The notes under the pieces were generated by a model that saw only the letters and a list, made by a program, of their open reading frames with translations, ran no database searches and was not told the origin of the DNA. A program made the translations under genes and the position numbers. Of a stretch of 64,000 nt of DNA, positions 41,070 to 64,000 are shown in pieces. Location of the stretch: assembly GCF_051903065.1 (NCBI RefSeq), contig NZ_CP178438.1. The stretch is one strand, 5' to 3'. The DNA is from Escherichia coli (GTDB lineage Bacteria > Pseudomonadota > Gammaproteobacteria > Enterobacterales > Enterobacteriaceae). The first letter of the stretch is position 1. Each line of letters starts with the position of its first letter.

Positions 41070-41077
41070 AATAATCA

Positions 41078-44903: not shown

Positions 44904-44979
44904 GCCGATATAGCTCAGTTGGTAGAGCAGCGCATTCGTAATGCGAAGGTCGTAGGTTCGACTCCTATTATCGGCACCA
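44904..44979 (+). tRNA. thrW: tRNA-Thr (anticodon CGT)
   Basis: GCCGATATAGCTCAGTTGGTAGAGCAGCGCATTCGTAATGCGAAGGTCGTAGGTTCGACTCCTATTATCGGCACCA; cloverleaf with CGT anticodon. Confidence 0.95.
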
Positions 44980-44993
44980 TTTAAATCAATAAG

Positions 44994-46157
44994 TTACACA
45001 TCATTAGTACCTTCCTTATTTTTTGACTGGGACAAATTTGGGACCGATGGGTTCAGGATCGAGTCTATTTGCCGTGCGTGTTCGGTAAGGTGATTAGGTG
45101 CAAGGTGAGCATATCGACGAACCATTTCGATAGACTCCCAGCCTCCCATTTCCTGTAACACTGACAACGGGACTCCGGCTTGAACTAGCCAACTTGCCCA
45201 GGTGTGTCTCAAGTCGTGAAATCTGAAATCATCAATACCAGCCCGTCTCAGCGCCGCTTTCCAGGCTGTGTTTGCGTCATACCGCATCTTCCTTACTGTT
45301 GGCGCTTTCGTTCCGTCTGGTTTGGTACAGCTTTCCTTGTACACAAATACCCAACGGTGATGATTCCCGATTTGTTTTTTCAAAACGCGACATGCAGTAT
45401 CATTCAGCGCAACGCCAATTGCGCGGTTTGATTTACTCTCTTCCGGGTTTATCCATGCCACCCGGCGCTGCATGTCTATTTGTTGCCATTCAAGGTTGAT
45501 GATGTTCGAGCGTCTTAAGCCTGTTGCCAGTGCAAATTCAACAACAGACTTTAATGGCTCCGGACATTCATCAATCAGCCTTTGTGCTTCATGGGGCTCC
45601 AGCCAGCGGATCCGTTTATTCTTTGGTTGAGGCACTTTAATAATTGGTGCCTTATCCAGCATTTTCCATTCACGCTCTGCGGCTCTTAGTAGGGCCTTTA
45701 TAAATGAAAGATGCGTAGCCTTCGTTGCAACGGACGCTGGTTTTGGCGTGTATTCTGGAACAGGTTTCCCTTTTTTTCTGCATGCTTCTGCCCTGAGTCT
45801 CCAGTTTTCCTCATGACGCCGGTTCGTCATTTTCTGCATTGCTGAATAAATTTTTGATTCAGTAATGTCTCTTAGTTGCATTCCTGCGAAATGTTGAAGC
45901 CAGAATCCGATCCGGCTTTTGTCATCGTCCAGTGATTTTTTATGTGCTTTCTCTTCAAGCCACCTGACACACGCTTCCTCGAACGTTATATCAGGTATTT
46001 CACCAAGTTTGCTGACCCGCCATGCTTCAGCCTTTAGCTTGTCATGGAGTTCTGTCGCCTGCCTTTTGTCCTTTGTTCCAAGAGACTGTTTAAATCTTTT
46101 ACCGTTCGGCAATGTGAAACTGGCGTACCATATTTCACCTCTGCGGAAGAGTGACAT
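44994..46157 (-). CDS. int: Phage tyrosine integrase (P22-type, thrW-specific)
   Basis: 387 aa, [31 protein letters not shown]...; C-terminal catalytic domain ([10 protein letters not shown]...RYAH); directly adjacent to the tRNA 3' end. Confidence 0.93.
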
Positions 46158-46384
46158 TTTCTTTCCTCTGTTATGCCATCACCCGCGCTCACCTGGACAG
46201 TATGCAGCGGAGACTGAAGAGCCGCAATGCAGGCTTGTCGTGTTGTGAGGTAAGGAGATTTATTCTTAGTGGGATCTTTGCGTGTTGCCTGAAGACGCCC
46301 TGTGCGTATCCAGTTAATGGCAGTCGGTCTGGATATCTTGAGAAAATGACAGGCCTCATCGAGTGTGAGGCTGTATGGCTCCAT
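46034..46384 (-). CDS. xis: Phage excisionase (P22 Xis-like)
   Basis: Start at internal [32 protein letters not shown]; overlaps the int 5' end. Confidence 0.8.
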
Positions 46385-46689
46385 TATTTCACCTCTTGCT
46401 GTGACATTGTTGAAAAATGGATACCAGCTCGTTGCTGCCAGACGATCCAACCGAGAGTCATATCCCATGCCATGTATTCGTTATCGCCGTTTTTTGCTCT
46501 CCGACGATCTACTAAGTCACCGAAACGCTTTTCCATGAATAATTCATAAGCTTCGCGTTCATCTGGTTCTACTTCCAGAGATAGGAGTGCGATTTCATAA
46601 GCACGGCGCTCAATATCGTCTCGCACGTCAAGGCTGCTGATACGCTCTTTAATTTCTTTAATCAGTTCTTTGTCGGTAAAAGTGGTCAT
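46384..46689 (-). CDS. Phage hypothetical protein
   Basis: 101-aa ORF tightly packed in the early-left operon. Confidence 0.5.
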   Translation of the reverse strand: MTTFTDKELIKEIKERISSLDVRDDIERRAYEIALLSLEVEPDEREAYELFMEKRFGDLVDRRRAKNGDNEYMAWDMTLGWIVWQQRAGIHFSTMSQQEVK

Positions 46690-47051
46690 TATGCTCCAGC
46701 CTCCGGTGCTTTTGGCATTACTGCCCAGTGAGTGATATTGACGTTTTCAAGGTCCCCGACCTGAAATGTCCACTGCCATTCTCCGGTTTCTTTTTGTCCC
46801 CAGGTGTACCAGAGAGAACGCCAGCCAATTAGCCAGCCTTCTCCGTTAGCATCGAATAACAAAACACTTTCATTTGCTGGTGGCAGTTCAGTTGACACTG
46901 GTATTACTTTGTTTTCCTGTGCTGCACATTTAGCTTCAAGCGCATCGAATTTACGCACTAGGTATTCAGCATCTGTTTCATTTACTTTCAGATCTCGCGG
47001 TACACATCTCCCACGAAGAAACCCTTCCATTTCGAAAACATTCATGCGCAT
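46689..47051 (-). CDS. Phage DUF551-like protein
   Basis: 120-aa ORF with a Trp-rich C-terminus typical of DUF551 prophage proteins. Confidence 0.6.
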   Translation of the reverse strand: MRMNVFEMEGFLRGRCVPRDLKVNETDAEYLVRKFDALEAKCAAQENKVIPVSTELPPANESVLLFDANGEGWLIGWRSLWYTWGQKETGEWQWTFQVGDLENVNITHWAVMPKAPEAGA

Positions 47052-47578
47052 TTGCGTAACTCCGATAACTCGTTAAAGCGTTCCATAAACATCCCGTAGG
47101 CATGGCCCGGTGCCAGTGGAATCACGTTGAACATCTCTGTTGCCGGGATACCTTCCAGTACAGGCCAGAAAGAGCCATCATCAAGCCCGAGATCGCGGCG
47201 TTCGGTTGCCAGCATGATGAGATCGGCATATTTCACGGGCGTACTCATAACTGGGGGTAACCCGTATTTCTCACGGATTACGGCGTCTATTTTTTCTTCC
47301 ATTTGTTTATAGTCAGGAAGAAGGCGTTTCAGTGGTGCGGGAATGTCCTGGCAATACGCTTCTGTTGCATCATGCATTAACGCTTCAAAAGCAAATTCCT
47401 GCGGCACCAGCTGGCTGCAAAGAACCGCATGTTGGGCGACGCTGTAGAAGTGCGAAAGATGACCGGCAAAGCGACAGATATTTGAAAGGGAAACCGCGAT
47501 ATCGTTAATATCGATGTCGTCTTTATTTATCCTGTCATAATAAAAATGCTTCCCGGAAAAAGTTTTAATAAATGACAT
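47042..47578 (-). CDS. HD-domain phosphohydrolase (5'-deoxynucleotidase-like)
   Basis: HD motif (...ALMHDATEAY...); start at ATG 47578 with GGAG RBS (MSFIKTFSG...). Confidence 0.7.
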   Translation of the reverse strand: MSFIKTFSGKHFYYDRINKDDIDINDIAVSLSNICRFAGHLSHFYSVAQHAVLCSQLVPQEFAFEALMHDATEAYCQDIPAPLKRLLPDYKQMEEKIDAVIREKYGLPPVMSTPVKYADLIMLATERRDLGLDDGSFWPVLEGIPATEMFNVIPLAPGHAYGMFMERFNELSELRKCA

Positions 47579-47705
47579 TTTGTTCTCCACGTATATGCGC
47601 TGCACCGCGCTGAATTCTGGTAAAAAGAATCCCTCACCATCCGGCGATTATTGAGTAAATTACGTTTCCATAAATGCCCCCGCAGGGGCATTTGCAGTAA
47701 TGAAA

Positions 47706-48530
47706 TCAGGCGGTGAAAGTACCAATAAAGGTTTCTACTTTGCTGTCCTTGAATTTCTCAACAAGCAGATCACGAAATTCGTTAGCCATTTCTTCCTGCA
47801 CCGCCTCCAGCTGAATAATGCGCAGAACCAGTACAGGACGATCGCCAGTGATAATACTGAGGCGTAATTTAAACGGACGTTCTTTCAGACCTTCAAACGG
47901 AACGCATTTAAATTCAAATGCCACTGGCATAATGTCTTTGGTCTTCGCTTCGACAGACTCCATCAGGGAGCGTTTGCCGCTGAAGTCATTATCTTCAAAA
48001 TCAGCGGTCTGGTTTGCTTCAATCGTGATTTTACGGACAGCCGCAGCCGCTTTTGTTGCCTGAATAGCGTCACCATTAGCATCAAAGCCCACAAGATAGT
48101 CGGCCCAGTCTTCAATCCATTCTGCTAGTGACTTCTGGGAGTTACGCTCGCCGTTAACAGACAACAGAGCAGAGAACGGTGCTGTCTTTTTCAGTTTGAG
48201 TGTGGCGGTGTTATCTGCGTGACCTGGTTCATCAATAGTACCCAGGTTAAGCACACTGACGGCACGCATATTATCAGCATCGATAAAGCAGCGGGTGCCT
48301 TCATCTGCAAGATCTTTAGAATAACGGGTAAAGTCATCGATGCTGGCAGTGGAAAGCGCACCACGGAAACGGAAGCGATTTAAATTAAATTTTTCCAGAT
48401 CATGAATGCGGAAATTCTCAGGCAATGCCACAGCATCGGCACCAATCTTACTGATAATTTCATTAACACCCTGAGCAGAAATAAGGGCATGGATTTGATT
48501 AATTGCGGTTGCGTCTAAGTTCTGAGACAT
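47706..48530 (-). CDS. Phage protein, YfdQ-like (DUF2303 family)
   Basis: 274-aa ORF resembling prophage YfdQ. Confidence 0.6.
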
Positions 48531-48595
48531 AATAAGTCCTCACTATATAAAGATATTCAGTGATGAGATAAATAATCAGTTAATTAAAAACGATA

Positions 48596-48958
48596 TTAAC
48601 GACCTGCTGCGCGGAGTTTTCCGTCAGGTTCACCGGCAAGAGTCAGTAACTGTCCCTGGTCTTCCTGCAGAATAGTCAGGCGACCACCGCGATTGACATA
48701 CATCGGCGTTTCGGTGGTGTCTTCTTCGGAAATTTTCCCGCGGTTAGTCGGGCGAACATATGAGAGTTTGTGTTTGATTTTCACTCGGTTCTCATCAAAC
48801 GGTTCGATTTCCAGGTTGAGCGAGACCTTACCTTTGGTTTTCGTGTTCATCACACCGGAAGCGACTTCACTGAGAACTGCGCCGATTTTGGTTTCAAATA
48901 CGCCGCCGTCCAGCTCCCCGATAAATGCCTGCACATCAGTACTGCGTTCGCTAGCCAT
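48596..48958 (-). CDS. Phage protein, YfdP-like
   Basis: Start at ATG 48958 (MASERSTDVQ...) preceded by AGGAG; the track's longer ORF upstream is rejected. Confidence 0.55.
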   Translation of the reverse strand: MASERSTDVQAFIGELDGGVFETKIGAVLSEVASGVMNTKTKGKVSLNLEIEPFDENRVKIKHKLSYVRPTNRGKISEEDTTETPMYVNRGGRLTILQEDQGQLLTLAGEPDGKLRAAGR

Positions 48959-49426
48959 TTTGCTGCTCCTCATCATATCGACCCTGCAAGGTCGGTTAGT
49001 TTCTCCACAAAACAGAGAAGAACACCTGCGGTGACTGCCGCCCGGATGGATTGGGTTATGAGCCCGTCGTCCGGTGATGCTCTTCTCTGTTTTGTAAAAA
49101 GGACGGTACCAGCCGGAAGCAAGAGTACAAGCTGGTACCGCCAAGACTACACACAGCATAAAGTTGTGGTGCCGGGTGCCTCCCGGTGCCTGGCGAAGGT
49201 TGCACACCAGGCGGGTGGGTATCCACAGAAGGTCGACTGTCAGCCTCAACCTTAACCCGCGTGCGCTGAGCCGCATTCACCACAACGCTAAGGATTCTCT
49301 CTGGTTGAAAATACTTAGCTGTTATGTGCCTGCTTTTAGCCACATCAGGCGAGGTGGACCTAGTTATTCCCCAACAACAAGGATTCGGTTAATCTGGTTA
49401 TCCCCAACAACGCAAAAGGAAAAGAA

Positions 49427-49861
49427 ATGTCCGGTAATATCTATACGCTGTACAAATCCCACTGTGAAAATGTTGGAAAGTATCGGGGCATTGAAATCAG
49501 TGGGGTAGTGTCATCAGTCGAAATAAGCAAAGTTGAATCAAGGGCAACATTACTTACTCTTTTGGACCTTGTCTTACATGAGCACCGGAAGAAATTCGGC
49601 ACTCCCTATAATCAGTTGAATGGGAAAAAGGCTCTGGTTCACCTTATTCTGATGAAGCATCACTGGATGCCAAAACAGATTAATGAGATGAAATTTGATG
49701 AACTTCTTCTTTCAATTCAGGATGAACTCACACTTGATAAAATAAGCGTAACCGCCCAGAAATTTTTAGATTATCGAGACTGGAGATCACAAATTCATCA
49801 CTTTGATGATTTTGACGAAAATGAATGGGATCCTAATTTGTCTGCACAATATCTAAAGTAA
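49427..49861 (+). CDS. Hypothetical protein (AT-rich moron, opposite to the leftward operon)
   Basis: 144-aa ORF with AAAGGAAAAG RBS region; tandem 34-nt-spaced repeats upstream and a terminator downstream. Confidence 0.55.
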   Translation: MSGNIYTLYKSHCENVGKYRGIEISGVVSSVEISKVESRATLLTLLDLVLHEHRKKFGTPYNQLNGKKALVHLILMKHHWMPKQINEMKFDELLLSIQDELTLDKISVTAQKFLDYRDWRSQIHHFDDFDENEWDPNLSAQYLK

Positions 49862-50039
49862 CATCCTGTGATAAAACCGTGATTTCCTGATCCAGTTTTT
49901 TTAAGGAGTCTATTGTTTCCTGTCGATAAGACAGCACTTCACGAAGCTGGTTTATAGCTGCCAGCTTCTTTGTCATCCACTCATAAATTTCCTCATCTGT
50001 GTAGCCAGGCGCGACGATTTTGGGTTCTGTTTTGTGCAT
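49833..50039 (-). CDS. Hypothetical small protein, first gene downstream of the putative pL
   Basis: 68 aa from ATG 50039 (MHKTEPKIVAPGYTDEEIYEW...) with AGGAG 7 nt upstream; 3' end overlaps the convergent 49427 gene by 29 bp. Confidence 0.4.
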   Translation of the reverse strand: MHKTEPKIVAPGYTDEEIYEWMTKKLAAINQLREVLSYRQETIDSLKKLDQEITVLSQDVTLDIVQTN

Positions 50040-50078
50040 TTCACATCTCCTCAAGTTATCAGTTACTTGTTGATGGGG

Positions 50079-50106
50079 ACCAGATTGTTAAAGAGCTAAG
50101 CGTCCT
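50079..50106 (+). terminator. Rho-independent terminator-like hairpin (plus strand)
   Basis: GCGTCC-tgta-GGGCGC followed by TTTTTT. Confidence 0.5.
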
Positions 50107-50188
50107 GTAGGGCGCTTTTTTGTTGCTAACGAATCATCCTGGACTTCATATGCTCCAGGCGGCTACTTCGTGGGCGTCCTGCCTGTTC

Positions 50189-50227
50189 GTTGTTTCGCTT
50201 GGGTACATTATGTATCTCAAAGGTACA
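50189..50227 (-). promoter_or_regulatory. Putative pL/OL: leftward promoter with GTAC-containing operator half-sites
   Basis: Minus-strand TTGACA (50223-50218), 17-nt spacer, ATAATG (50200-50195); GGTACAT motifs at 50191 and 50211 resemble the OR palindromes. Confidence 0.5.
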
Positions 50228-50233
50228 TTGTCA

Positions 50234-50257
50234 AGTATAAAAAAACCTGCCGAAGCA
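50234..50257 (-). terminator. Terminator of the repressor transcript
   Basis: Minus-strand AACCTGC-ttcg-GCAGGTT followed by TTTTTTT, just downstream of the cI stop. Confidence 0.6.
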
Positions 50258-50273
50258 GGTTCATAAACATTGA

Positions 50274-50948
50274 TTAGGCTTTGATTTTGTATCTTCTTGG
50301 TTTTCCTGAGAAAATCACTGTACCAATTATAGAGCAATTACCGTTGATCTTAATGTAAGGCTCAGGCCAGTTTGGGTTTAACGCTTTGAGATAACGCTGT
50401 GTCCCATCTTCTATCAACCTTTTGAAGGTGGTTTCGCCTGTATCGTGCATCAATGCAATAACGTCGTCACCGTGGCAGGCAGGTACTTCAGGATCGACAA
50501 AAATCATGTCTCCCGGGCGGTACTCATCAATCATTGAATCACCTATCACCCGCAAGATATAAGTCATTTCCCCACAGGGTACAGGGCAGGGATACGTTTC
50601 TGCTGTGCTCAAATCAACCTCAGAATATCCAACTTCTTTCCATGCTCCGGCCTGTACCCATGATATGACAGGGACTAATGTGATTTGTTTATTAGTGATT
50701 GAAACATCAGGTTTTTTTGTGATGTTCGTTGTCTGGTGTTCTTGATCGAGCCATCCGACAGGCAGGTCGAAACATTTTTCGATGTGTCGTGCCATGCTGT
50801 CACCGATATTTTTAGTAGCACCATCTCCCATAAACCTGCTGGTCTGGGTTGGCTCGCGATCAATCATAGTGGCAAAGGAAGAATTCCCGCCAACACCATC
50901 TCTCAGTTTTCTGGCGTTAGACCGCCGGATGTCATGGATTGTTTTCAT
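50274..50948 (-). CDS. cI: Phage CI-type repressor (HTH plus S24 LexA-like peptidase domain)
   Basis: 224 aa; C-terminal S24 motifs (GDSM...K); ATG has no upstream RBS, consistent with a leaderless transcript. Confidence 0.85.
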   Translation of the reverse strand: MKTIHDIRRSNARKLRDGVGGNSSFATMIDREPTQTSRFMGDGATKNIGDSMARHIEKCFDLPVGWLDQEHQTTNITKKPDVSITNKQITLVPVISWVQAGAWKEVGYSEVDLSTAETYPCPVPCGEMTYILRVIGDSMIDEYRPGDMIFVDPEVPACHGDDVIALMHDTGETTFKRLIEDGTQRYLKALNPNWPEPYIKINGNCSIIGTVIFSGKPRRYKIKA

Positions 50949-50962
50949 AACGAAATTAAAAC

Positions 50963-51033
50963 CCTTGTACCGTTAAGGTACAAGTATCTTGAAGGTTCAT
51001 TTCAATCATGTAATATGTACACCGGAGGTACAT
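50963..51033. promoter_or_regulatory. OR region: two palindromic operators and the rightward promoter
   Basis: CTTGTACC-gttaa-GGTACAAG (50963-50983) and ATGTAC-accggag-GTACAT (51015-51033); TTGAAG-16-TAATAT promoter at 50987-51014. Confidence 0.65.
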
Positions 51034-51038
51034 ATTGT

Positions 51039-51239
51039 ATGAAAGCGTATTGGGACTCTTTAACCAAAGAACAGCAGGGCGAGTTGGCCGGAAAAGTTGG
51101 CTCAACACCTGGCTACTTACGGCTGGTTTTCAATGGCTATAAAAAAGCCAGTTTTGTGCTGGCTAAAAAACTTGAGCAATGCACGTCAGGTGCAATTACG
51201 AAATCTGACTTAAGACCGGATATCTATCCGAAAGATTAG
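51039..51239 (+). CDS. cro: Cro-like HTH repressor
   Basis: 66 aa from ATG 51039 with GGAGG RBS (MKAYWDSLTKEQQGELAGKVGSTPGYL...). Confidence 0.75.
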   Translation: MKAYWDSLTKEQQGELAGKVGSTPGYLRLVFNGYKKASFVLAKKLEQCTSGAITKSDLRPDIYPKD

Positions 51240-51270
51240 CAGAACACTTTCAATTTTTAACCACAGAACG

Positions 51271-51834
51271 ATGAGGCTAACCGTGGGTAAGCATCACTGG
51301 AAAATAGAAAAACAGCCTGAGTGGTACGTGAAAGCTGTCAGAAAAACTATCGCGGCGTTGCCGGGTGGTTACGCTGAAGCGGCTGACTGGCTCGATGTAA
51401 CAGAAAACGCTTTATTCAACCGCCTTCGTGCAGATGGCGATCAGATTTTCCCGCTGGGATGGGCAATGGTTTTACAGCGTGCTGGTGGCACTCACTTCAT
51501 TGCTGATGCTGTGGCGCAGTCTGCAAATGGCGTCTTTGTGTCTCTTCCTGACGTCGAGGATGTGGACAACGCCGATATCAACCAACGCCTGCTGGAAGTC
51601 ATTGAACAGATCGGCAGTTATTCAAAACAGATTCGTTCAGCAATTGAAGACGGTGTAGTGGAACCGCATGAGAAGACAGCAATTAACGATGAGCTGTACC
51701 TCTCAATTTCGAAGCTGCAGGAGCATGCAGCACTGGTCTACAAAATCTTTTGCGTTTCAGAAAGTAGTGACGCCCGCGAGTGTGCAGCTCCGGGCGCCGT
51801 GGCGTGTCGTGACTGTGGAGAAACTAACGCATGA
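51271..51834 (+). CDS. Phage CII/YdaT-like regulatory protein
   Basis: 187-aa ORF directly after cro. Confidence 0.5.
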
Positions 51835-52189
51835 ACAGTTTAACAACACACTACCGTCGCTCGCAACTGATTGCGCTTCCTGTACCGGGTGGAAAAGCGA
51901 AGGTGGAGTATTGCTATGCAGTAAATGTACCAGGTGACAGGGAAATTGTAACCCACAGCTTTGCAGAGTGGGCTGTGGGTGATTTCAACCGGCAGAAGGA
52001 GACAGTCCTTTGCGACAAGTTAACCGCTGGTTCAAAGATCACTACGGAGTGCCCGTCAGAGTCATTCGTTGGGAGCCGGAAACACAACGGGTTATCTACC
52101 TCCGTGAAGGCTATGAGCATGAGTGCTTCAGCCCGCTCGAACAGTTTCGTCGTAAATTCAGGGAAATAGAGGTCGGTCATGAGCACTAA
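51831..52189 (+). pseudogene. Phage gene with an apparent single-base frameshift in a T-run
   Basis: Frame 0 ([10 protein letters not shown]...QKETVL) is protein-like up to about 52010; frame 2 from 52010 ([59 protein letters not shown]) is protein-like and ends abutting the next gene. Confidence 0.5.
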
Positions 52190-53120
52190 ATTAACCGGCT
52201 ATGTATGGGATGGTTGCGCTGCGTCAGGCATGAAATTATCCAGCGTGGCAATTATGGCCCGCCTGGCTGATTTCAGTAATGACGAAGGTGTGTGCTGGCC
52301 ATCAATTGAAACCATTGCCCGTCAGATTGGCGCGGGGATGAGTACCGTCAGAACGGCTATCGCACGGCTGGAAGCAGAAGGCTGGTTAACGCGTAAGGCG
52401 CGTCGCCAGGGTAACCGCAATGCGTCGAATGTTTATCAGCTTAACGTTGCGAAGCTTCAGGCAGCGGCATTTTCTCAACTGTCAGATTCTGACCCGTCAA
52501 AATCTGACGCATCAAAATCTGACCCGTCAAAATTTGATGCGTCGAAATCTGGCAAAAAAGCGGGTTTTCACCCGTCAGAATCTGGCGGGGATCCGTCAGT
52601 AAAATCAAAACATGATCCGTCAGATAAAAAAACTTCTCGTCCGGACGCTTCGCAACCGGACACGCAGACGGCTGAACAGGAGTTTTTAACTCGCCATCCT
52701 GATGCGGTTGTATTCAGCCCTAAAAAGCGCCAGTGGGGAACGCAGGATGATTTGACCTGCGCACAGTGGCTCTGGAAAAAAATCATCGCCCTGTACGAGC
52801 TGGCCGCCGAATGTGACGGCGAGGTGGTTCGTCCCAAAGAACCGAACTGGACAGCCTGGGCAAACGAAATTCGCCTGATGTGTGTGCAGGATGGTCGTAC
52901 TCACAAACAAATCTGCGAGATGTACAGCCGCGTCAGCCGCGATCCGTTCTGGTGCCGTAACGTGCTCAGCCCGTCGAAGCTGCGGGAAAAATGGGATGAG
53001 CTTTCCCTGCGCTTATCGCCGTCCATCAGCACATACACAGAAAAACGCGAAGACCCGTATTTCAAATCCAGTTACGACAACGTGGACTACAGCCAGATCC
53101 CGGCAGGATTCAGGGGGTGA
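52179..53120 (+). CDS. Phage replication initiation protein (lambda O-like) with internal iterons
   Basis: 313 aa; N-terminal winged-helix region, repeat-encoded Ser/Asp/Lys-rich linker. Confidence 0.7.
   Translation: MSTKLTGYVWDGCAASGMKLSSVAIMARLADFSNDEGVCWPSIETIARQIGAGMSTVRTAIARLEAEGWLTRKARRQGNRNASNVYQLNVAKLQAAAFSQLSDSDPSKSDASKSDPSKFDASKSGKKAGFHPSESGGDPSVKSKHDPSDKKTSRPDASQPDTQTAEQEFLTRHPDAVVFSPKKRQWGTQDDLTCAQWLWKKIIALYELAAECDGEVVRPKEPNWTAWANEIRLMCVQDGRTHKQICEMYSRVSRDPFWCRNVLSPSKLREKWDELSLRLSPSISTYTEKREDPYFKSSYDNVDYSQIPAGFRG
52485..52625 (+). repeat. Iteron array, candidate phage origin of replication
   Basis: Tandem imperfect repeats (GACCCGTCAAAATCTGAC / GCATCAAAATCTGAC / CCGTCAAAATTTGATGCGTCGAAATCTGGC / CCGTCAGAATCTGGC / TCCGTCAG). 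Confidence 0.65.
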
Positions 53121-54323: not shown

Positions 54324-54342
54324 TTAAGAGGAGAAACGAAGT

Positions 54343-55140: not shown

Positions 55141-55141
55141 G

Positions 55142-56137: not shown

Positions 56138-56154
56138 TTTGGTGGAGAAAGTTG

Positions 56155-56502: not shown

Positions 56503-56526
56503 TTTATTAGACGGCCATATTGGCCG

Positions 56527-57714
56527 TCAGCTAAATAAATATGTAATAGCATAAGGCGTAAGTAAAAAGTAGAACCTAAATGTAAGATATAAGCCACATA
56601 AAACTATAATTCCTAATGAGGCAAAAACAACTTTCTGAACAAGCAATCTTGTGGTTAAACTATCAAATGTATCCTTTATATCTTCGTAAATAGCCTTGAA
56701 GTTATATTCTGCTTGTTGTTTTTTATGATTTAACTCATCATTTATTGCTGTTAAAGTTTGCCATTGATTAAATAGAACAAATAGAATCATAATAGTGAAG
56801 AACAATGCACCCAACACTACAGCTGTATTTATTAATGCTTGACTATCCCAACCATTAGCCTGCTTCATTTGAGTCGCAACGATAATTGTTGCGACGGGGA
56901 TACCTAATATCTGATTTTGTATGTCACTGAATACTTTATGTATTTTTCCCATCTCTTCTATTTTGGCTACTCGTAACTGATCCAGTATTTTCTCGTAAGA
57001 AAAACCAGAAACGAATACTTTGTATCCTTTTTGATAACTTTCATAAAGTTGTCCTAAATCCCTTAACATGAAGGAAAAAGAGGTTTCTTTAGTTTTAGAT
57101 TCACATGATGATTTTATGCTACTTGCTAAAATAGTAAGTTTTTGATCTTTATGCGTATCTTCTGCAAAGTTTGCGATCAAATTATGAATCAGATCTCCAT
57201 TAACATTCATAAGATCATCGCTAGAATAATTTACTGGAATTTTTAGTACGTTGGATTCGACGAATACCAATTCAAAATTTGTTTCATCTAAATAAGCAGA
57301 ACAATCTTTGAATAAAGTAATTAAGCTCAAAACATCTCTGTACTTGGATATAATAGCAGGCGACTTTTTATCCCTGTTGTGATAATTAAGTTCGATTATA
57401 AAGAAGTTACTGGCTTCCTTTATCCTATTTTTAGGATTTTTTAAATACTCATTAAAAGAGAAATGTAGCTGCCCCAATCGTAATTTGGGGGGGGTTATAT
57501 GTAAGGTTATAGTTTGGCCTAACTCAATGTTGCCAGATTCAAGGGTGATGCCAAAATCATGGGGATTCTCTGTGATATCGTTGATGATGTCACAGAGCTC
57601 CTCGTTTGAAAGAATGAGTGATGCTTCAGATAGGGTACCTGCAAATGTAGCGGCCTTGTAAATAGTCACTAAGTCTTTGAAGGTTCTCTGATTGTTACTG
57701 CTCATCCTCTTCAC
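56527..57714 (-). CDS. Hypothetical protein with two C-terminal transmembrane helices (cassette gene 2)
   Basis: 395 aa; hydrophobic segments ALINTAVVLGALFFTIMILFVLF and VVFASLGIIVLCGLYLTFRFYFLL; 20-bp overlap with the upstream gene; AT-rich. Confidence 0.6.
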   Translation of the reverse strand: MKRMSSNNQRTFKDLVTIYKAATFAGTLSEASLILSNEELCDIINDITENPHDFGITLESGNIELGQTITLHITPPKLRLGQLHFSFNEYLKNPKNRIKEASNFFIIELNYHNRDKKSPAIISKYRDVLSLITLFKDCSAYLDETNFELVFVESNVLKIPVNYSSDDLMNVNGDLIHNLIANFAEDTHKDQKLTILASSIKSSCESKTKETSFSFMLRDLGQLYESYQKGYKVFVSGFSYEKILDQLRVAKIEEMGKIHKVFSDIQNQILGIPVATIIVATQMKQANGWDSQALINTAVVLGALFFTIMILFVLFNQWQTLTAINDELNHKKQQAEYNFKAIYEDIKDTFDSLTTRLLVQKVVFASLGIIVLCGLYLTFRFYFLLTPYAITYLFS

Positions 57715-58729
57715 CTAATTCTGATAAAATCTCTGATCTTAGCGTATCCGGAATCTCGGTAAGTATCAATTTATCGTTTTCTGAATCATAAAGAACGCTG
57801 CCATCATGCAAGGCCGCACGCTCGAATTTCAGAGACCAATGTTTGGACTTTCCTTTGAAACTAACAAGCCCACGTATAACGTTGCCATCAGGCACGAACC
57901 CATCAGAGAACTCCAGATCGTCATTGGTTAACTTTTCAACTAACAACTCAGGAGCAGTTGGCCATATCTCGTTTGCAAAAACTTGAGTGTCGAAAGCTTC
58001 ACCAGAACGATTTAAATTTTTTAATTTTTCATGAGCCTTATTTAGGAACTCTTCACGTGCCTCTGGTTCAAAACCTCTTTCAGTAGCAAATTCTAAAAGT
58101 GCATTCCGTAATTTTGTTGTTTCTTGTTTGGCAATTAGAATATCGTTACAACCTAAAAACTTTTTGAAATAACCTGCTACTGAATTTTGCCCCTTTAGAA
58201 AGCTAATATATCTCTCTTTGCCATTCTGGCGCCCAGTTAAGTCAATTCGTCCCGCTACTCGAAGTTTAGCAATGTCTAGATATTCACTTTCTTGAATTTC
58301 AAAATCGTGGACTGAAGAGCCAACTGCTGATGTTAGGATTGCAACCATCAAATAATGATTTCCATTTACCTCATTATGGGCAATTATTACATAACCACCA
58401 GTAGACATTGATTCATCATCGGCTCTGGCTTTTAAATGATTGATCATTCGGATACTAGTATCATAAAAACTATGTGTTTTATTTACGAAATAATCATCAA
58501 CGATATTACCCATAGGGTAACTATCGCGGTCATCTTCAAATTTACCATATCCTTTACCTGCTCTCCCAGAGTACCTTTCAGTAAGTGCGTTAGAGAGGTC
58601 TTTTGATGCTTGCTGAACAGGTTTTTCTGAAGGACAAGGAATAATGGTGGCTAACCCCTGTTGTTCCTTGTTCATAATGTGAACAATAAACTTATGAGTG
58701 ATATTAGTGGGGGTCGCTGATGCAGTCAT
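57695..58729 (-). CDS. NdpA/YejK-like nucleoid-associated protein homologue (cassette gene 1)
   Basis: 344 aa; blocks GGYVIIAH...YLMVAILTS, LDIAKLRVAGRIDLTGRQNGKERYISFLKGQN...FKKFLG and a C-terminal LILTEIPDTLRSEI mirror YejK (GGFVLFCH, LDLDKMQLASRIDLTAWQTNSDRYLSFLKGKNG...FLHFLG, LTIKGTPPNLRDQL). Confidence 0.7.
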   Translation of the reverse strand: MTASATPTNITHKFIVHIMNKEQQGLATIIPCPSEKPVQQASKDLSNALTERYSGRAGKGYGKFEDDRDSYPMGNIVDDYFVNKTHSFYDTSIRMINHLKARADDESMSTGGYVIIAHNEVNGNHYLMVAILTSAVGSSVHDFEIQESEYLDIAKLRVAGRIDLTGRQNGKERYISFLKGQNSVAGYFKKFLGCNDILIAKQETTKLRNALLEFATERGFEPEAREEFLNKAHEKLKNLNRSGEAFDTQVFANEIWPTAPELLVEKLTNDDLEFSDGFVPDGNVIRGLVSFKGKSKHWSLKFERAALHDGSVLYDSENDKLILTEIPDTLRSEILSELGEEDEQ

Positions 58730-58845
58730 AACAACATCCTTTTAATGGTTTTGAACAATTGGTGTTGATAATACTTCAAAAAATACTAATGCGTACGCAA
58801 AAAATACAGTACTCTGTTAAGAGTGGTTACTTCGCCACACAGCTT

Positions 58846-58868
58846 AAACCCGCCGTCGAGCGGGTTTT
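58846..58868 (+). terminator. Short GC hairpin plus T-run (tR'-like terminator candidate upstream of the lysis genes)
   Basis: AAACCCG-ccgtcgag-CGGGTTTT; possible promoter TTGATA-17-TAATGC about 60 bp upstream. Confidence 0.35.
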
Positions 58869-59019
58869 GTCGTTTCTGGGCTTTGGTATTCGTTGGGCTT
58901 GGTCTATCTAGCTCTTATCCATTGGCTCGGCTTCTTTTACGTTTCCGCTTCTGATTTGCGGTTCGTGGTACTCCCTCAATTTGCACCTCTTGTATCGGCG
59001 AGGTGAGAGATAACTACAA

Positions 59020-59346
59020 ATGCCTCATAACCCAAATACCTGGCTGGAGTTGGTCCAGAGCTGGTGGCGTGGAGACACACCGCTGGGCGCAGTGATTATG
59101 TCGATTGTTATGGCTGGTTTGCGCATTGCCTATTTTGGCGGTGGTGGTGGCTGGAAGCGAAAAACACTCGAAATTCTACTCTGTGGCGCTCTGACGCTGA
59201 CTTTTGCATCCGCTCTTGAGTATGTCGGATGGCCTAAATCGCTTTCTGTTGCCATTGGTGGTGGGGTGGGGCTGATCGGTGTCGATGCTATTCGTGGGGC
59301 TGCAATGAGAGTAATCGGTAATAAGTTTGGTGGCTCTAAGGAGTAA
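59020..59346 (+). CDS. Putative holin
   Basis: 108 aa with several hydrophobic segments, immediately upstream of the endolysin. Confidence 0.65.
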   Translation: MPHNPNTWLELVQSWWRGDTPLGAVIMSIVMAGLRIAYFGGGGGWKRKTLEILLCGALTLTFASALEYVGWPKSLSVAIGGGVGLIGVDAIRGAAMRVIGNKFGGSKE

Positions 59347-59349
59347 TTT

Positions 59350-59826
59350 ATGCAGGTACTAAATTCCCAGCGTAAAGCTTTCCTCGATATGGTGGCATGG
59401 TCAGAAGGAACGGATAACGGGCGACAACCGACACGTAACCACGGTTATGATATTATTGTTGGTGGTGAACTATTCACTGATTACTCCGATCACCCTCGCA
59501 AACTTGTCACGCTAAACCCCAAACTCAAATCAACAGCTGCAGGCCGTTATCAACTTCTTTCACGCTGGTGGGATGCTTACCGCAAGCAGCTTGGGCTGAA
59601 AGACTTCTCTCCAAAAAGCCAGGATGCTGTGGCATTGCAGCAGATTAAAGAGCGTGGCGCTTTACCGATGATTGATCGCGGCGATATTCGTCAGGCTATC
59701 GATCGTTGCAGCAATATCTGGGCTTCACTGCCGGGCGCTGGTTACGGTCAATATGAACATAAAATAGGTGACCTGATTGCCCGATTCAAAGAGGCTGGCG
59801 GGGTGGTAAATGAAGTTGAGCTATAA
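59350..59826 (+). CDS. Endolysin, lambda R-type lytic transglycosylase
   Basis: 158 aa; NQRKAFLDMVAWSEGTDNGRQ...DRCSNIWASLPGAGYGQ matches lambda R. Confidence 0.93.
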   Translation: MQVLNSQRKAFLDMVAWSEGTDNGRQPTRNHGYDIIVGGELFTDYSDHPRKLVTLNPKLKSTAAGRYQLLSRWWDAYRKQLGLKDFSPKSQDAVALQQIKERGALPMIDRGDIRQAIDRCSNIWASLPGAGYGQYEHKIGDLIARFKEAGGVVNEVEL

Positions 59827-60202
59827 GCTGGTTATCGCAGCATTCTTCTCTACTGTCATCGGTTCTTTCATCTGGTCTGCTAACCACTACTACAGCAAAT
59901 ATCAGCACGAAAAGAAACGTGCTGATGAGGCTGTACAAAATGCTGAATCCGCAACCGCTATTACCAATAATGTCCTGCAATCACTGCAAATCGTCAATAC
60001 AGTTCTGGAGGCTAACCAGCATGCAAAACAGCAGATCGCACTGGAGTCACAGAGAACCCAGGAAGATATCAAAGTGGCTGTTGAGAATGATGATTGCGCT
60101 TCCCGTCTTGTTCCTGCTCGTGCAACTGAGCGGCTGCGCCGGTACGCGGACAATTTACGTACCAGTTCCGGCGGTACCACTACCGGCGAACCTGACCGCT
60201 GA
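59810..60202 (+). CDS. Spanin inner-membrane subunit (Rz-like)
   Basis: 130 aa, N-terminal TM helix then coiled-coil; overlaps the R 3' end. Confidence 0.75.
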   Translation: MKLSYKLVIAAFFSTVIGSFIWSANHYYSKYQHEKKRADEAVQNAESATAITNNVLQSLQIVNTVLEANQHAKQQIALESQRTQEDIKVAVENDDCASRLVPARATERLRRYADNLRTSSGGTTTGEPDR

Positions 60203-60344
60203 AACCCCACAGCCAGCTATTCCTGATCCGCTGACTTACAGAGATAGTCTGGATTTAAACGTGAGCCTGCTGTCAGTGCTGGCTGCCTGTAATAGGGATA
60301 AGGCTGATATTCGTAAAATTGAAGCAGAGAAGAGTGAGCCATGA
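60087..60344 (+). CDS. Spanin outer-membrane lipoprotein (Rz1-like), overlapping Rz in another frame
   Basis: Internal start MMIALPVLFLLVQLSGC (lipobox), Pro-rich mature part; extends past the Rz stop. Confidence 0.65.
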   Translation: MMIALPVLFLLVQLSGCAGTRTIYVPVPAVPLPANLTAETPQPAIPDPLTYRDSLDLNVSLLSVLAACNRDKADIRKIEAEKSEP

Positions 60345-60538
60345 AGCAGTAAAGTGGAAAGATCGCAGCAAGAAGTGCCTGTTCAGAATTAATGAAGATG
60401 CCTCAAATACCTAAAATAGCGAGTAGCCAGATGCACGTCAACTACGAGTGTGTGGCCAGCATAACGTTGTATAAACTAAGTGATAGCAGAGTTCAATATA
60501 CGTATACTGAGAGAACTATTTCTATTTGAGAACTGAAA

Positions 60539-61132
60539 ATGACGGACTATACTTTTTTTTACTGGATAGAGATGCTTCTTAAAGAAGGCAATGTTTTATT
60601 TATTGTTCTTGCTTGTTTGATTGTCTTTTTTACTTTAAAAAAAGAAATAATAATGGTTTTAGGTCGTCTTAATACAGTTAAGCTAGGTGACTATGAGATT
60701 AAATTTAAAAAAGAAATGTTTGAAATAGAATCTAAAAGTATAGAGGTTATTAAAAATTTACCTGGAACAAATCCTGTCCTGCCGACACAACTCATTGAGA
60801 ATTTCAATATTTTTGAGAGTCTTGCTAGTACTCAGCCTAATGTTGCTGTACTTTCAGCTTGGCGCGAATTGGAGTTAACCGCTATAACGCTTGCATCTAA
60901 AAAGGGGGTTGAGATCAACGGGACATCTTTAGGGCGGGCTTCAGGTATCGCTGCCTTGAAAAATGTCCAATCTGCAAACAAAATTTCTAGTGACATTGTT
61001 AAGCTTTATGAAAAAACAGGAGAGTCTATTAAGCCTATATCCCAAGGAAAGCTCTTATGTACTCAGGAAGATGCTTTGGCATTCTGTAAGAATGCAAAAA
61101 GACTTAGCAATTATTTAACATCCATATTTTAG
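60539..61132 (+). CDS. Hypothetical protein with N-terminal TM helix (AT-rich moron after the lysis cassette)
   Basis: 197-aa ORF, about 30% GC against a ~50% GC phage background. Confidence 0.5.
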   Translation: MTDYTFFYWIEMLLKEGNVLFIVLACLIVFFTLKKEIIMVLGRLNTVKLGDYEIKFKKEMFEIESKSIEVIKNLPGTNPVLPTQLIENFNIFESLASTQPNVAVLSAWRELELTAITLASKKGVEINGTSLGRASGIAALKNVQSANKISSDIVKLYEKTGESIKPISQGKLLCTQEDALAFCKNAKRLSNYLTSIF

Positions 61133-61208
61133 TATGTATCCATAGAGCATCCATTATTATTGGAGTAGTCGTTACAGCAGGCATTCACTGAGTGCCTGCT
61201 GCTGAACT

Positions 61209-61421
61209 CTAATAGCAAGATGGAGAATCTGCATTAAATTTTTGAGAGAGATTACTTATTTCATTCACTCCCTTATGATTAAGTAATAGCCTAATATTTT
61301 CTGGAGCCTTGAATATAAATGGGCCTTTTAGATCCTCGATGATTCCTCCTGCGACGCAGATCAAATGCTTGAAATCAACATCTTCAATTGTGGGCTTGGA
61401 GTCCAGATTATCGCTTGTCAT
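61209..61421 (-). CDS. Hypothetical small protein
   Basis: 70-aa ORF, AT-rich, convergent with the 60539 gene. Confidence 0.3.
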   Translation of the reverse strand: MTSDNLDSKPTIEDVDFKHLICVAGGIIEDLKGPFIFKAPENIRLLLNHKGVNEISNLSQKFNADSPSCY

Positions 61422-61550
61422 TTAAAAACATCCTTTCTTGCCATTAGCAGCATTGAGCATGTTATGGAATCTGTAATTTAGGATGCTGGTACTACCAGTA
61501 CTTTTTTTGTTTCATTTTGTGAATCACCTCATTTACGAGGGGAGCCTATC

Positions 61551-61901
61551 ATGCCACCACGAACACCAAAAGCCTGCCGTGTTCGCGGCTGCCGCTCTAC
61601 AACCACAGACCCTTCAGGCTACTGCGAAAGCCACAAAAGCGAAGGCTGGAAGCAATACAAAACTGGACAATCCCGTCATCAGCGCGGCTACGGTTCGAAG
61701 TGGGACAGTATCCGCGCGCGTGTCCTGAAGCGTGACAAAGGCCTGTGTCAGTTATGTCTGCGTGCTGGTGTGGTGCGTGAGGCGAAGACCGTTGACCACA
61801 TCATCCCTAAATCGCATGGCGGCACTGATGTCGACAGTAATCTGCAGAGTTTGTGCTGGCCGTGTCATAAGGCGAAGACGGCCCGTGAACGGCTGAAGTA
61901 A
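61551..61901 (+). CDS. Phage HNH endonuclease (terminase-associated)
   Basis: 116 aa; Cys-rich HNH motif (CQLC...VDHIIPKSHGGTDVDSNLQSLCWPCH). Confidence 0.85.
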   Translation: MPPRTPKACRVRGCRSTTTDPSGYCESHKSEGWKQYKTGQSRHQRGYGSKWDSIRARVLKRDKGLCQLCLRAGVVREAKTVDHIIPKSHGGTDVDSNLQSLCWPCHKAKTARERLK

Positions 61902-62017
61902 GAACCAGTTCCCACTGCCAGAGGGGAGGGGCGGGTCAAATCCCTGTGACCTGACGTCTTCCGGACTGCCCGCCCCATCGTTTTTTTATACCCGCGAAAA
62001 ATGAAATTTAACCAGGA

Positions 62018-62521
62018 GTGCCGCATATGGCTGGAACGGCGGGGCGTTCCGGGCGTCGCCCCAAGCCAACGGCGCGCAAGGCGCTGGCCGGAAACCCCGG
62101 CAAGCGAGCCCTGAACAAAGATGAACCTGTTTTTACGCCCATCAAAGGTGTTGAGCCACCGGAGTGGTTCGCTGAAGAGGATCTCCCTCTCGCCACGATC
62201 ATGTGGCAACTGACAACCAAAGAACTCTGCGGTCAGGGCCTGCTGTGCGTGACTGACCTAGCGGTACTTGAGCGGTGGTGCGTGGCCTATGAGTTCTGGC
62301 GACGTGCCGTGAAAAATATTGCCAAACAGGGCAACACCATCACCGGTGCAATGGGCGGTATGGTCAAAAATCCGGAGCTGACCGCCAAAAAAGAACAGGA
62401 GTCCGAGATGAGCAGTACGGGGGCAATGCTCGGACTCGACCCCAGCAGCCGCCAGCGTCTGATTGGCCTGGCGGGGAAGAAGAAAGCCACTAACCCGTTT
62501 CTGAAAATCATCGAATCATGA
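62018..62521 (+). CDS. Terminase small subunit (P27-family-like)
   Basis: 167-aa ORF directly upstream of the large subunit. Confidence 0.75.
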
Positions 62522-64000
62522 GCCGGAAATCTTACCCCAACGTAAATGCTGCCAATCAGTATGCCCGGGATGTCGTGCGCGGAAAGATTGTGGCCTGCCA
62601 GTTTGTGATTCAGGCCTGCCAGCGCCATCTTGATGACCTGATGGCGGAAAAAAGTAAGTCGTTTCGTTACCGCTTCGACAAGGACCTGGCTGAACGGGCC
62701 GCCAAATTTATTCAGCTGTTGCCGCACACCAAGGGTGAGTGGGCATTCAAGAGGATGCCCATCACGCTGGAGCCGTGGCAGCTCTTTGTGATCTGCTGCG
62801 CGTTTGGCTGGGTCAATAAAGGCTCCCGGCTGCGCCGCTTCCGTGAGGTGTATACCGAAATCCCCCGTAAGAACGGCAAATCGGCAATCTCTGCCGGTGT
62901 CGCCCTGTATTGTTTTGCCTGTGATAACGAGTTTGGCGCGGAAGTGTATTCCGGTGCCACGACAGAGAAACAGGCGTGGGAAGTCTTTCGCCCGGCGCGA
63001 CTGATGTGTAAACGCACACCCATGCTGACGGAAGCGTTCGGGATTGAGGTTAACGCCTCAAACATGAACCGTCCGGAGGATGGCGCGCGGTTTGAACCGC
63101 TGATCGGTAACCCCGGTGATGGATCATCACCCCACTGTGCGGTGGTGGATGAATATCACGAGCACGCCACCGATGCGCTTTACACCACGATGCTTACCGG
63201 GATGGGGCGCGACGTCAGCCACTGATGTGGGCCATTACTACTGCCGGGTACAACATTGAGGGGCCGTGCTACGACAAGCGGCGGGAAGTCATCGAGATGC
63301 TCAACGGCTCGGTGCCCAACGATGAACTGTTCGGGATCATCTATACCGTTGATGAAGGTGACGACTGGACCGACCCGCAGGTGCTGGAAAAAGCCAATCC
63401 AAATATTGGCGTGTCGGTTTATCGCGAATTTTTGTTAAGTCAGCAGCAGCGTGCGAAAAATAACGCCCGTCTGGCAAACGTCTTTAAAACAAAACACCTC
63501 AATATCTGGGTGTCGGCGCGTTCGGCGTATTTCAACCTGGTGAGCTGGCAGAGCTGCGAGGATAAATCACTGACCCTTGAGCAGTTCGAGGGGCAGCCGT
63601 GCATTCTGGCCTTTGACCTGGCGCGTAAGCTGGATATGAACAGCATGGCGCGACTTTATACCCGCGAGATTGACGGTAAAACGCATTACTACAGTGTGGC
63701 CCCGCGTTTCTGGGTACCGTATGACACGGTGTACAGCGTCGAGAAAAATGAAGATCGACGGACAGCCGAACGCTTTCAGAAATGGGTGGAAATGGGCGTT
63801 CTGACCGTTACCGATGGTGCAGAGGTGGATTATCGCTACATCCTCGAAGAGGCCAAAGCGGCGAACAAAATCAGCCCGGTCAGTGAGTCACCCATCGACC
63901 CTTTCGGAGCGACCGGGCTCTCACATGACCTTGCTGATGAAGACCTGAACCCCATCACTATCATTCAGAACTACACCAACATGTCCGACCCGATGAAAGA
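62518..64000 (+). CDS. Terminase large subunit, disrupted by a 1-nt frameshift near 63204-63207, 3'-partial at window end
   Basis: Frame 1 carries Walker A (IPRKNGKS) and Walker B (AVVDEYHEH) and stops at 63225; frame 0 from 63153 continues terminase-like to the window end. Confidence 0.8.

Follow-up and report, generated by a model that had tools for sequence, protein, structure and literature searches.

The prophage at thrW

This article deals with a prophage found on a 64,000-nucleotide stretch of Escherichia coli DNA (NCBI RefSeq assembly GCF_051903065.1, contig NZ_CP178438.1), which at its full length is called the window. The prophage begins within the 3′-end of the tRNA gene thrW and continues to the last nucleotide of the window, where it is cut off inside terL, the gene for the large terminase subunit (TerL). 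With high confidence, it can be described as a mosaic variant of the Shigella phage SfIV, a member of the SfI/SfII/SfIV/SfV group that sits in thrW by means of a P22-type integration module and that was recently disabled. This kind of element is already catalogued. What is new is its rare combination of cargo genes, together with a remote variant of a defence class that has only just been described. What is said below of the virion genes, of the right end and of the lost right attachment site (attR) was read from near-identical genomes, since the window ends within terL. Two complete E. coli genomes contain the 19.2 kb at 100 % coverage, and 18 do so at 80 % or more. One near-identical genome, NZ_AP045789.1 (strain 23CRST027), was compared with the window from 41689 to 64000 (22.3 kb), and the two differ only by two single-base homopolymer indels.

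The features of the integration site and of the left end are:

44904..44979, + strand: thrW, tRNA-Thr(CGU), anticodon CGT, placed by ARAGORN and by Rfam (tRNA, 71.8 bits); the sole tRNA gene placed
44934..64000: prophage part in the window, starting at the left attachment site (attL) and ending 1.5 kb into terL; left arm of an element of roughly 40 kb
44934..44996, + strand: attL core; its first 46 bp are the SfIV/SfV attP core, and the genome of 2014C-3075 has all 63 bp a second time, as attR
44994..46157, − strand: integrase (Int), a tyrosine recombinase of P22 type, 387 amino acids, ending 15 nucleotides past the tRNA gene
46034..46384, − strand: excisionase (Xis), 100 % identical to that of SfIV; a 144-residue open reading frame (ORF) extends to 46468

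The left part of the att core consists of the 3′-terminal 46 nucleotides of thrW, and the same 46 bp are found unchanged in SfIV at 23198–23243. Upstream of thrW lie proB and proA, as in strain K-12, and a tRNA-Thr gene follows proA in the near-identical genome as well. In K-12 the thrW site is occupied by the element CP4-6, flanked by the same 46-bp repeat, so that the prophage does stand in place of the K-12 element, as had been proposed. Judged by its annotated gene content, CP4-6 itself looks like an unrelated element: it has many insertion sequences, genes for metabolism and for toxin-antitoxin systems, and its integrase gene intF at the far end. The G+C content is 0.474 in the prophage part against 0.503 upstream, with three marked troughs.

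An SfIV-type backbone

The nearest sequenced phages are the Shigella phages SfIV (66 % query coverage, 97.3 % nucleotide identity), SfV and SfII, along with E. coli isolates of the “vB_EcoM” series. SfIV is an inducible myovirus with a contractile tail and a 46-bp attP, which integrates into thrW and uses lambda-like cos packaging (PMC3851460). The annotated SfIV genes (NC_022749) were translated and mapped onto the window with tblastn; twenty-six of the proteins are colinear there, most of them at 95–100 % amino acid identity:

Int 99.7 %; Xis, gp30–33, cI and cro 100 %; gp34 98.7 %
O-like replication protein 99 %; PerC-family regulator 95 %; LexA-N-like protein 99 %; DUF968 protein 98 %
holin 99 %; endolysin 98 %; Rz 85 %; Rz1 74 %
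HNH endonuclease (gp54) 92 %; small terminase subunit TerS (gp01) 98 %; TerL 98–99 %
other alleles: KilA-N 66 %; antiterminator Q 51 %

The divergence of KilA-N and Q from their SfIV counterparts marks the mosaic joints. The late end of the alignment contains the genes for lysis and packaging:

59020–59346, + strand: holin of the lambda family (NCBIfam holin_lambda)
59350–59826, + strand: GH24 endolysin
59810–60202, + strand: Rz i-spanin, 130 amino acids, aligning over its full length to SfIV Rz
60087–60344, + strand: Rz1 o-spanin lipoprotein, with Met at 60087 and the lipobox LSGC
61551–61901, + strand: HNH endonuclease
61959/61960: cos junction, between the HNH gene and terS, to which the ends of the SfIV genome map (97 % over 300 nucleotides)
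62027–62521, + strand: small terminase subunit, P27 family (TIGR01558, above cutoff)

Packaging is of the type that uses cos, HNH and a P27-type TerS, and not of the pac or headful type. Rz and Rz1 have the make-up of a normal spanin pair of the overlapped type. Rz had been considered as a frameshifted gene, a candidate that was rejected, as its 130 residues are those found in the viable phages SfIV and vB_EcoM-689R6.

Gene order, the 46-bp attP core, the cos junction and the 130-residue Rz are thus the same in SfIV and in the window. The differences lie elsewhere. The rusA gene of the window is unmatched among the annotated SfIV proteins compared, and the slot between Q and the holin gene holds IS1 with gp48 and gp49 in SfIV, but a gene for an NA37 protein and one for a transmembrane protein in the window (cassette 2, below). 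The window also has an extra cassette of 1.2 kb after Rz1 (cassette 3), which SfIV lacks, and its terL is frameshifted. Finally, SfIV carries gtrABC beside attP, as P22 also does in that position, while NZ_AP045789.1 has pinE, a GIY-YIG gene and the retron Ec67 reverse transcriptase there instead.

The SfI/SfII/SfIV/SfV group is made up of serotype-converting Shigella myoviruses that package from cos and combine a lambda-like order of genes with an HK97-type head and a Mu-type tail. Most of the features that define the group are present: the attP core in thrW with int and xis next to it, the colinear early, lysis and packaging genes, and the same cos site, to which NZ_AP045789.1, read alongside the SfIV gene table, adds an HK97-type head and a Mu-type contractile tail. 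The serotype-conversion genes gtrA, gtrB and gtr(type) beside attP are replaced, in the interval from the tail-fibre genes to attR, in both NZ_AP045789.1 and 2014C-3075, and the element is therefore a relative without serotype conversion. The backbone recurs in the sister phage vB_EcoM-689R6, which has another integrase and is located next to icd.

A borrowed integration module

The original prediction had described a P22-like lambdoid prophage at thrW. The lambdoid order and the start at thrW hold good, and so does the P22 character of the recombination genes next to the 3′-end of tRNA-Thr: over all 387 residues Int shares 89.7 % amino acid identity with P22 Int, and Xis shares 85.7 % with P22 Xis over 119 residues (26–144 of the ORF). 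Given this alignment, Xis probably has 116 residues and starts at Met29 of the 144-residue ORF, at 46384. The family assignment does not hold, since only 3 of 31 window proteins compared with the P22 genome by tblastn find a match: Int, Xis and the C-terminal peptidase half of cI (40 %, to c2). In the same search, TerS and both halves of TerL had no match in the P22 genome, and the early and lysis genes of P22 (erf/abc, 24, cro, c1, 18/12, nin, 23, 13-19-15) had none among the window proteins tested.

What P22 and the window share is the Int and Xis proteins, integration at thrW and an integration module placed at the left end of the prophage; in each of them a moron on the opposite strand, which in P22 is sieB, also separates the early-left genes from the repressor. 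They differ in that none of the P22 early genes, nor its gene 23, lysis genes or pac terminase, is found in the window. P22 packages by a headful mechanism, as described in the SfIV paper (PMC3851460), and a pac site is marked on the P22 record. The podovirus virion genes (portal gp1, scaffold gp8, coat gp5, tailspike gp9) would lie outside the window, and NZ_AP045789.1 has an HK97-type portal, protease and capsid, a sheath, a tube and a Mu-type baseplate downstream instead. “P22-like” is accordingly a fair name for the int/xis/attP module only, a case of ordinary lambdoid mosaicism.

A frameshift in the large terminase gene

62518..64000, + strand: gene for the large terminase subunit, frameshifted at a run of four G (G4) at 63204–63207; runs off the window

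Against SfIV TerL, tblastn places residues 1–230 in frame 1 (to 63207) and residues 230–494 in frame 3 (from 63204). The run at 63204–63207 has four G in the window and five (G5) in 23CRST027, SfIV and vB_EcoM-689R6, and over 1483 nucleotides of terL the window and 23CRST027 are identical apart from it. The ORF for the N-terminal part stops at a TGA (63223–63225), which is overlapped by an in-frame ATG (63225–63227, TGATG) that opens the remaining 341 codons. A split TerL is unlikely to work, because the break appears to separate the Walker B motif (VVDE) from the probable coupling motif (ITTAG).

The short form is not peculiar to the window. The exact fragment of 235 residues is called on 11–22 contigs from independent assemblies, as compared with at least 1000 contigs for the intact TerL of 577 residues. 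The fragment and its 341-residue remainder come from different sequencing runs, and they are found on several backgrounds of synonymous single-nucleotide polymorphisms (SNPs) and in different mosaic variants of the prophage; other truncations of the same gene also occur. From these comparisons, G4 reads as a minor allele, either recurrent or spread by recombination. In the window itself it may be a real mutation or a consensus error. A 247-residue cluster member (P0132) was considered as a possible allele with six G (+1), and was ruled out, its sequence being truncated elsewhere.

The right end and the missing attR

Beyond the point at which the window ends, NZ_AP045789.1 continues with phage genes for approximately 21 kb, encoding the portal, an HK97-type protease, the capsid, sheath, tube, tape measure and a Mu-type baseplate. 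One of them, ymfQ (a tail or baseplate gene homologous to that of Mu gp48, positions 36831–37414 of the locus), is annotated as frameshifted, and is a second possible virion-gene lesion. The right end is made of pinE, a LEM-3-like GIY-YIG gene and a retron Ec67-family reverse transcriptase/endonuclease gene (39684–43616 of the locus), followed by IS1. A search of this retron region for the msr/msd RNA yielded nothing at the Rfam gathering threshold.

The genome of 2014C-3075 has the same right end (pinE, GIY-YIG gene, retron Ec67 reverse transcriptase gene), but it then continues with attR and yagU. Its attR (10345–10407 of the locus) is an exact 63-bp copy of window positions 44934–44996, and is a repeated tRNA 3′ segment of the sort that the original prediction had proposed to search for. 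In 23CRST027, no second copy of the core was found within 41.7 kb past thrW. There, a 768-bp IS1 (43661–44428 of the locus) lies 286 bp before the expected attR, has no target-site duplication, and directly abuts the region just outside betA. Compared with the gene order of 2014C-3075 and K-12, attR and the segment from yagU to ykgH (approximately 22 kb in K-12) are missing, and with them the ecp fimbrial operon, the rcl genes and ykgEFG. The sequence to the right of IS1 has no match in K-12 within 3 mismatches. All this is the picture of an attR removed by an IS1-associated deletion. In 23CRST031, a matching right-end alignment of 5.1 kb suggests the same layout. If the window belongs to the 23CRST lineage, its prophage would be unable to excise, because attR is deleted.

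The original prediction had proposed to look for attR and for phage genes past the window, with their absence pointing to an assembly artefact. The phage genes do follow in the near-identical genome, from which attR is missing by deletion and not as an artefact.

Three accessory cassettes

The prediction of at least three autonomous AT-rich cassettes is borne out by low G+C content and by independent distribution among related prophages. The values are 0.38–0.41 at 49427–50054 (cassette 1), 0.33–0.39 at 56527–58729 (cassette 2) and 0.36 at 60345–61500 (cassette 3). The genes of cassettes 1 and 3 are:

49427–49861, + strand: cassette 1, ECs1072-family gene (NCBIfam NF033230, 157.8 bits, above cutoff)
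49833–50054, − strand: cassette 1, gene for 73 amino acids, convergent with the ECs1072-family gene
60539–61132, + strand: cassette 3, protein of 197 amino acids with an N-terminal hydrophobic stretch read from its sequence; PHROG 30030 only
61209–61421, − strand: cassette 3, ORF of 70 amino acids, within 60345–61500

Cassette 1, in which PHROGs 5286 and 1744 were matched, lies between the cI gene with its PL-like promoter and the early-left genes. This is the slot and the orientation of sieB in P22. Its ECs1072-family gene is also present in SfIV, as gp36 (100 %).

The 197-residue protein of cassette 3 has no match in Pfam, PADLOC or NCBIfam, and the cassette has none in any phage record. The protein family is tiny (7 clusters). 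In both homologue contigs examined, the gene stands directly after lambdoid spanin genes, which is the bor slot of lambda. The protein would be anchored in the membrane, and its gene would be transcribed together with the late genes.

Among 5426 complete E. coli genomes, 19 contain cassette 3 and 15 contain cassette 2, and only the two 23CRST genomes hold both. The three cassettes behave as independent morons, because SfIV lacks cassette 3 and has other cargo between Q and the holin gene, and because their distributions among genomes differ. Cassettes 2 and 3 occupy the two classical moron slots of lambdoid phages, the Q–S interval and the place after Rz/Rz1 (bor). The Q–S interval is where stx is found in Stx phages and lc in PA-2. 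The cargo is however different here, and the direction of transcription of cassette 2 is opposite to that of the late operon. In sister prophages these two slots carry Bor, a KAP NTPase, DUF3800 or DS-1; for the slot between Q and the holin gene, the KAP NTPase is that of one sister prophage and DUF3800 that of a less closely related lambdoid contig.

Cassette 2 as a candidate defence system

56527..57714, − strand: effector gene, 392–395 amino acids; PHROG 5023; N-terminal alpha/beta domain and two C-terminal hydrophobic helices
57695..58729, − strand: sensor gene, for a YejK/NA37 nucleoid-associated protein (NAP) of 344 amino acids, overlapping the effector gene by 20 nucleotides

“Sensor” and “effector” are here the names of the parts that these proteins would play. 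The sensor belongs to Pfam PF04245 (E 1.7e-68, covering residues 15–330 of 344). The effector has hydropathy peaks at residues 293–317 and 357–387, and its AlphaFold2 model (pLDDT 80) combines a mixed alpha/beta domain with long C-terminal helices. It has no match in Pfam, and a Foldseek search of the model against the PDB had none at E ≤ 0.001. This exact protein (WP_000097747.1) is listed as a “Predicted novel defense gene”, with a DefensePredictor log-odds of approximately 12.

Two recently described systems provide the context. DS-1 is an experimentally validated defence system from the DefensePredictor study (Science 2026; PMC13092281). In type II PANGU, which acts by abortive infection, a nucleoid-protein sensor, Pag2A, is combined with a membrane effector, Pag2B; Pag2A left the nucleoid upon T4 infection, which the authors' model attributes to phage-induced degradation of host DNA (bioRxiv 10.64898/2026.04.06.716658). 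As in these systems, cassette 2 starts with a YejK/NA37 gene, continues with a gene for a protein of approximately 400 residues with C-terminal transmembrane segments, and has overlapping or abutting frames. For type II PANGU(Ecu), the likeness was established at the level of the described architecture. The relation to DS-1 is remote, at about 20–25 % identity, and the 344-residue NAP of the window lacks the N-terminal zinc-ribbon extension of DS-1A (391 residues). With NCBIfam, the sensor reaches 165 bits for YejK and 56.4 bits for DS1_1_antiphage (cutoff 330), both below the cutoffs, and the effector reaches 70.3 bits for DS1_2_antiphage (cutoff 315; E 1.6e-19). An hhalign comparison of the effector-family profile with DS-1B gave a probability of 90 % (E 1.5e-6). 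The two proteins thus appear to be homologous to the DS-1 partners without being equivalogs of them.

The pairing of the two genes is conserved. A gene for an NA37 protein directly precedes one for a transmembrane protein in Methylotenera, in a Mu-like element of Klebsiella and in a prophage of Xenorhabdus, once beside DNA methyltransferase genes. DS-1 itself occurs in an SfV-like prophage on a metagenome scaffold (4236–6628), on the reverse strand between Q and the holin gene, which is the slot of cassette 2; it consists there of a protein of 404 residues, 99 % identical to WP_000150292.1, and an NA37 protein of 391 residues. Cassette 2 looks like a distant relative of DS-1 and type II PANGU, and we infer from these resemblances that it may act as an abortive-infection defence of that kind. 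The NAP would leave the chromosome when an infecting phage degrades the host DNA, and once displaced it would activate the membrane effector.

Early, immunity and late control regions

The remaining genes confirm, by homology searches, the predicted lambdoid order, which goes from the early-left genes to cI/cro, the O-like gene, rusA, Q, holin-R-Rz/Rz1, HNH and terminase:

46384..48958, − strand: early-left operon with yfdT, yfdS, yfdR (5′-deoxynucleotidase), yfdQ (DUF2303, PHROG 210) and yfdP, RefSeq names taken from the near-identical genome
49093..49316, − strand: candidate STnc100-like small RNA (Rfam RF02076, 43.4 bits against a gathering score of 47, E 1.3e-6)
50207–50234, − strand: candidate PL, read from 50234 to 50207; sigma-70-like, 11 of 12 positions, the best match in the scanned stretch 49200–62100
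50274–50948, − strand: cI, LexA/S24 type (NCBIfam LexA/UmuD); the SfIV gp37–39 set matches at 97–100 % amino acid identity
51039–51239, + strand: cro
51283–51834, + strand: ymfL, YmfL-family regulator (NCBIfam YmfL)
52179–53120, + strand: O-like replication gene
53117–53611, + strand: PerC-family regulator, 164 amino acids, conserved in SfIV
53611–53937, + strand: LexA-N-like protein, 108 amino acids, with the LexA-type DNA-binding domain only, conserved in SfIV
53934–54323, + strand: rusA
54343–55140, + strand: KilA-N gene
55142–56137, + strand: DUF968/HNH gene
56155–56502, + strand: antiterminator Q
58792..59005, + strand: leader of approximately 210 nucleotides upstream of the holin gene; blastn 72–87 % to SfII, SfIV, PA-2 and many lambda-like phages
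58846–58867, + strand: tR′-like hairpin followed by a run of T, from a terminator scan

The early-left genes are homologues of genes of the K-12 element CPS-53, and not of lambda red or P22 erf/abc. The match to STnc100 covers the full length of the model, below threshold, and the candidate overlaps an ORF that is coding in the SfIV annotation and frameshifted according to the NCBI Prokaryotic Genome Annotation Pipeline (PGAP). The ORF flagged by PGAP in the near-identical genome corresponds to window positions 48973–49282, and is a low-complexity, non-essential hypothetical one. Inside the small RNA candidate, a homopolymer at 49096–49100 has five A in the window and four in 23CRST027. A terminator-like hairpin is present after cI. 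Downstream of the O-like gene there is no recognisable helicase or loader gene, nor any analogue of lambda P or P22 gene 12, and the same is true of SfIV.

The holin leader also matches the record of the PA-2 lc region, J02580.1. Between the stop codon of Q and the convergent effector gene there are only 24 nucleotides, hairpin included. A promoter scan for the late promoter PR′ returned no sigma-70-like match on the + strand between cassette 2 and the holin gene. This promoter would be placed just upstream of the tR′-like terminator at 58846–58867, in which case cassette 2 would lie between Q and PR′ and late transcription would be uninterrupted.

Origin and fate of the element

The history of the prophage is most likely as follows. 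The phage entered the 3′-end of thrW through its P22-type Int/Xis/attP module, like other members of the group. It is a variant of SfIV in which the segment from int to the LexA-like gene and the lysis and packaging genes have stayed close to SfIV, while the KilA-N and Q alleles are different ones, rusA is added, and two moron slots contain cargo unlike that of SfIV. The disabling is recent and not old, because most of the SfIV counterparts are 95–100 % identical to those of an inducible phage and yet terL has lost one nucleotide and attR is gone from the nearest genomes. Such a prophage would be non-inducible. Of the accessory cassettes that it carries, one is probable and two are possible.

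The original prediction had seen the element as a decaying prophage with two frameshifted essential genes that still provides accessory functions. As regards the genes, terL is indeed broken at its G4 run, while Rz is normal and the ORF flagged by PGAP is non-essential. Decay is supported by the terL frameshift in the window, and by the loss of attR and the ymfQ frameshift in the near-identical genome.

Alternative explanations

That the whole element might be a P22-like prophage, a podovirus of the genus Lederbergvirus, is suggested by its Int and Xis, its thrW site and its int-xis layout. It is nonetheless extremely unlikely, considering how few of the 31 proteins tested match P22, the P27-family TerS that follows HNH and cos, a TerL that is 98–99 % identical to that of a cos phage when P22 uses pac, and the sheath, tube and Mu-type baseplate genes of the near-identical genome. 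The chance that the locus is a chimeric assembly of chromosome and phage joined at a tRNA gene is slighter still, and practically nil: nothing was found in its favour, the same junction and the 19.2 kb recur in other genomes as given above, and the known 46-bp att core is precisely where the two are joined. Another alternative, also unlikely, would have the prophage intact and inducible, with a homopolymer error in terL and attR located beyond the window. All the other genes do match those of the inducible SfIV, intact TerL is by far the commoner form, and the window departs from NZ_AP045789.1 only at an A4/A5 and a G4/G5 run. On the other hand, the occurrence of the G4 halves in independent assemblies and on varied backgrounds indicates that G4 is natural or recurrent, and attR is replaced by an IS1 junction in 23CRST027, with an apparently identical layout in 23CRST031. 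For terL one may also imagine, although this is very improbable, that the G run is no random lesion and is instead a recurrent and reversible contingency site. Room for this is left by the presence of G4 on several SNP backgrounds and prophage variants, by its being the only terL difference from an otherwise identical genome, and by the TGATG overlap, through which both halves of TerL are still translatable; the wild-type TerL sequence would be regained if tRNA-Gly slipped by −1 on AUG-GGG-C. If it were true, lysogens would toggle or throttle virion production while retaining the defence cargo of the prophage.

As for cassette 2, the NA37 protein could be a housekeeping or lysogeny nucleoid protein (acting for example in prophage gene silencing) that merely neighbours an unrelated membrane protein. 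YejK is a chromosomal nucleoid protein, and PHROGs files the family under DNA metabolism. This reading is rather improbable in view of the 20-nucleotide overlap, of a pair that stays together in the unrelated contexts of Methylotenera, Klebsiella and Xenorhabdus, of the match of each partner to its DS-1 counterpart, of the high DefensePredictor score of the effector, and of the presence of DS-1 in the same slot of a sister prophage. The account preferred here, that of a recently disabled SfIV variant with a candidate defence cassette, nevertheless has several points to contend with. The evidence on the right end and the virion comes from near-identical genomes and not from the window itself. 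Both differences from NZ_AP045789.1 are homopolymer lengths, the typical signature of consensus sequencing errors, and the prophage of the source strain might carry an intact terL. For all the cassette proteins PADLOC (2.0) gave no meaningful match, and both proteins of cassette 2 are far under the curated DS-1 cutoffs, the NAP being only 25 % identical to DS-1A. In addition, residues 1–265 of the effector are not markedly acidic (isoelectric point 6.0, 35 acidic against 31 basic residues), while the NAP-binding DNA-mimic (DMK) domain of Pag2B is described as acidic (bioRxiv 10.64898/2026.04.06.716658).

Significance

The chief value of the analysis lies in the correct filing of the element, as a myovirus prophage of the SfIV/SfV type that has borrowed its P22-type integration module and is no P22-like phage; mosaic prophages of such a kind are misclassified when integrase typing alone is used. 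With the loss of attR beside IS1 and a homopolymer frameshift in terL, it illustrates how the accessory genes of a prophage can survive intact when the prophage itself becomes locked in. In this prophage family, reverse-oriented cargo is exchanged in the interval between Q and the holin gene, and much of that cargo is defence or defence-like. Should the defence function of cassette 2 be confirmed, it would extend a new class in which a nucleoid protein is the sensor of infection, and temperate phages would be among its carriers.

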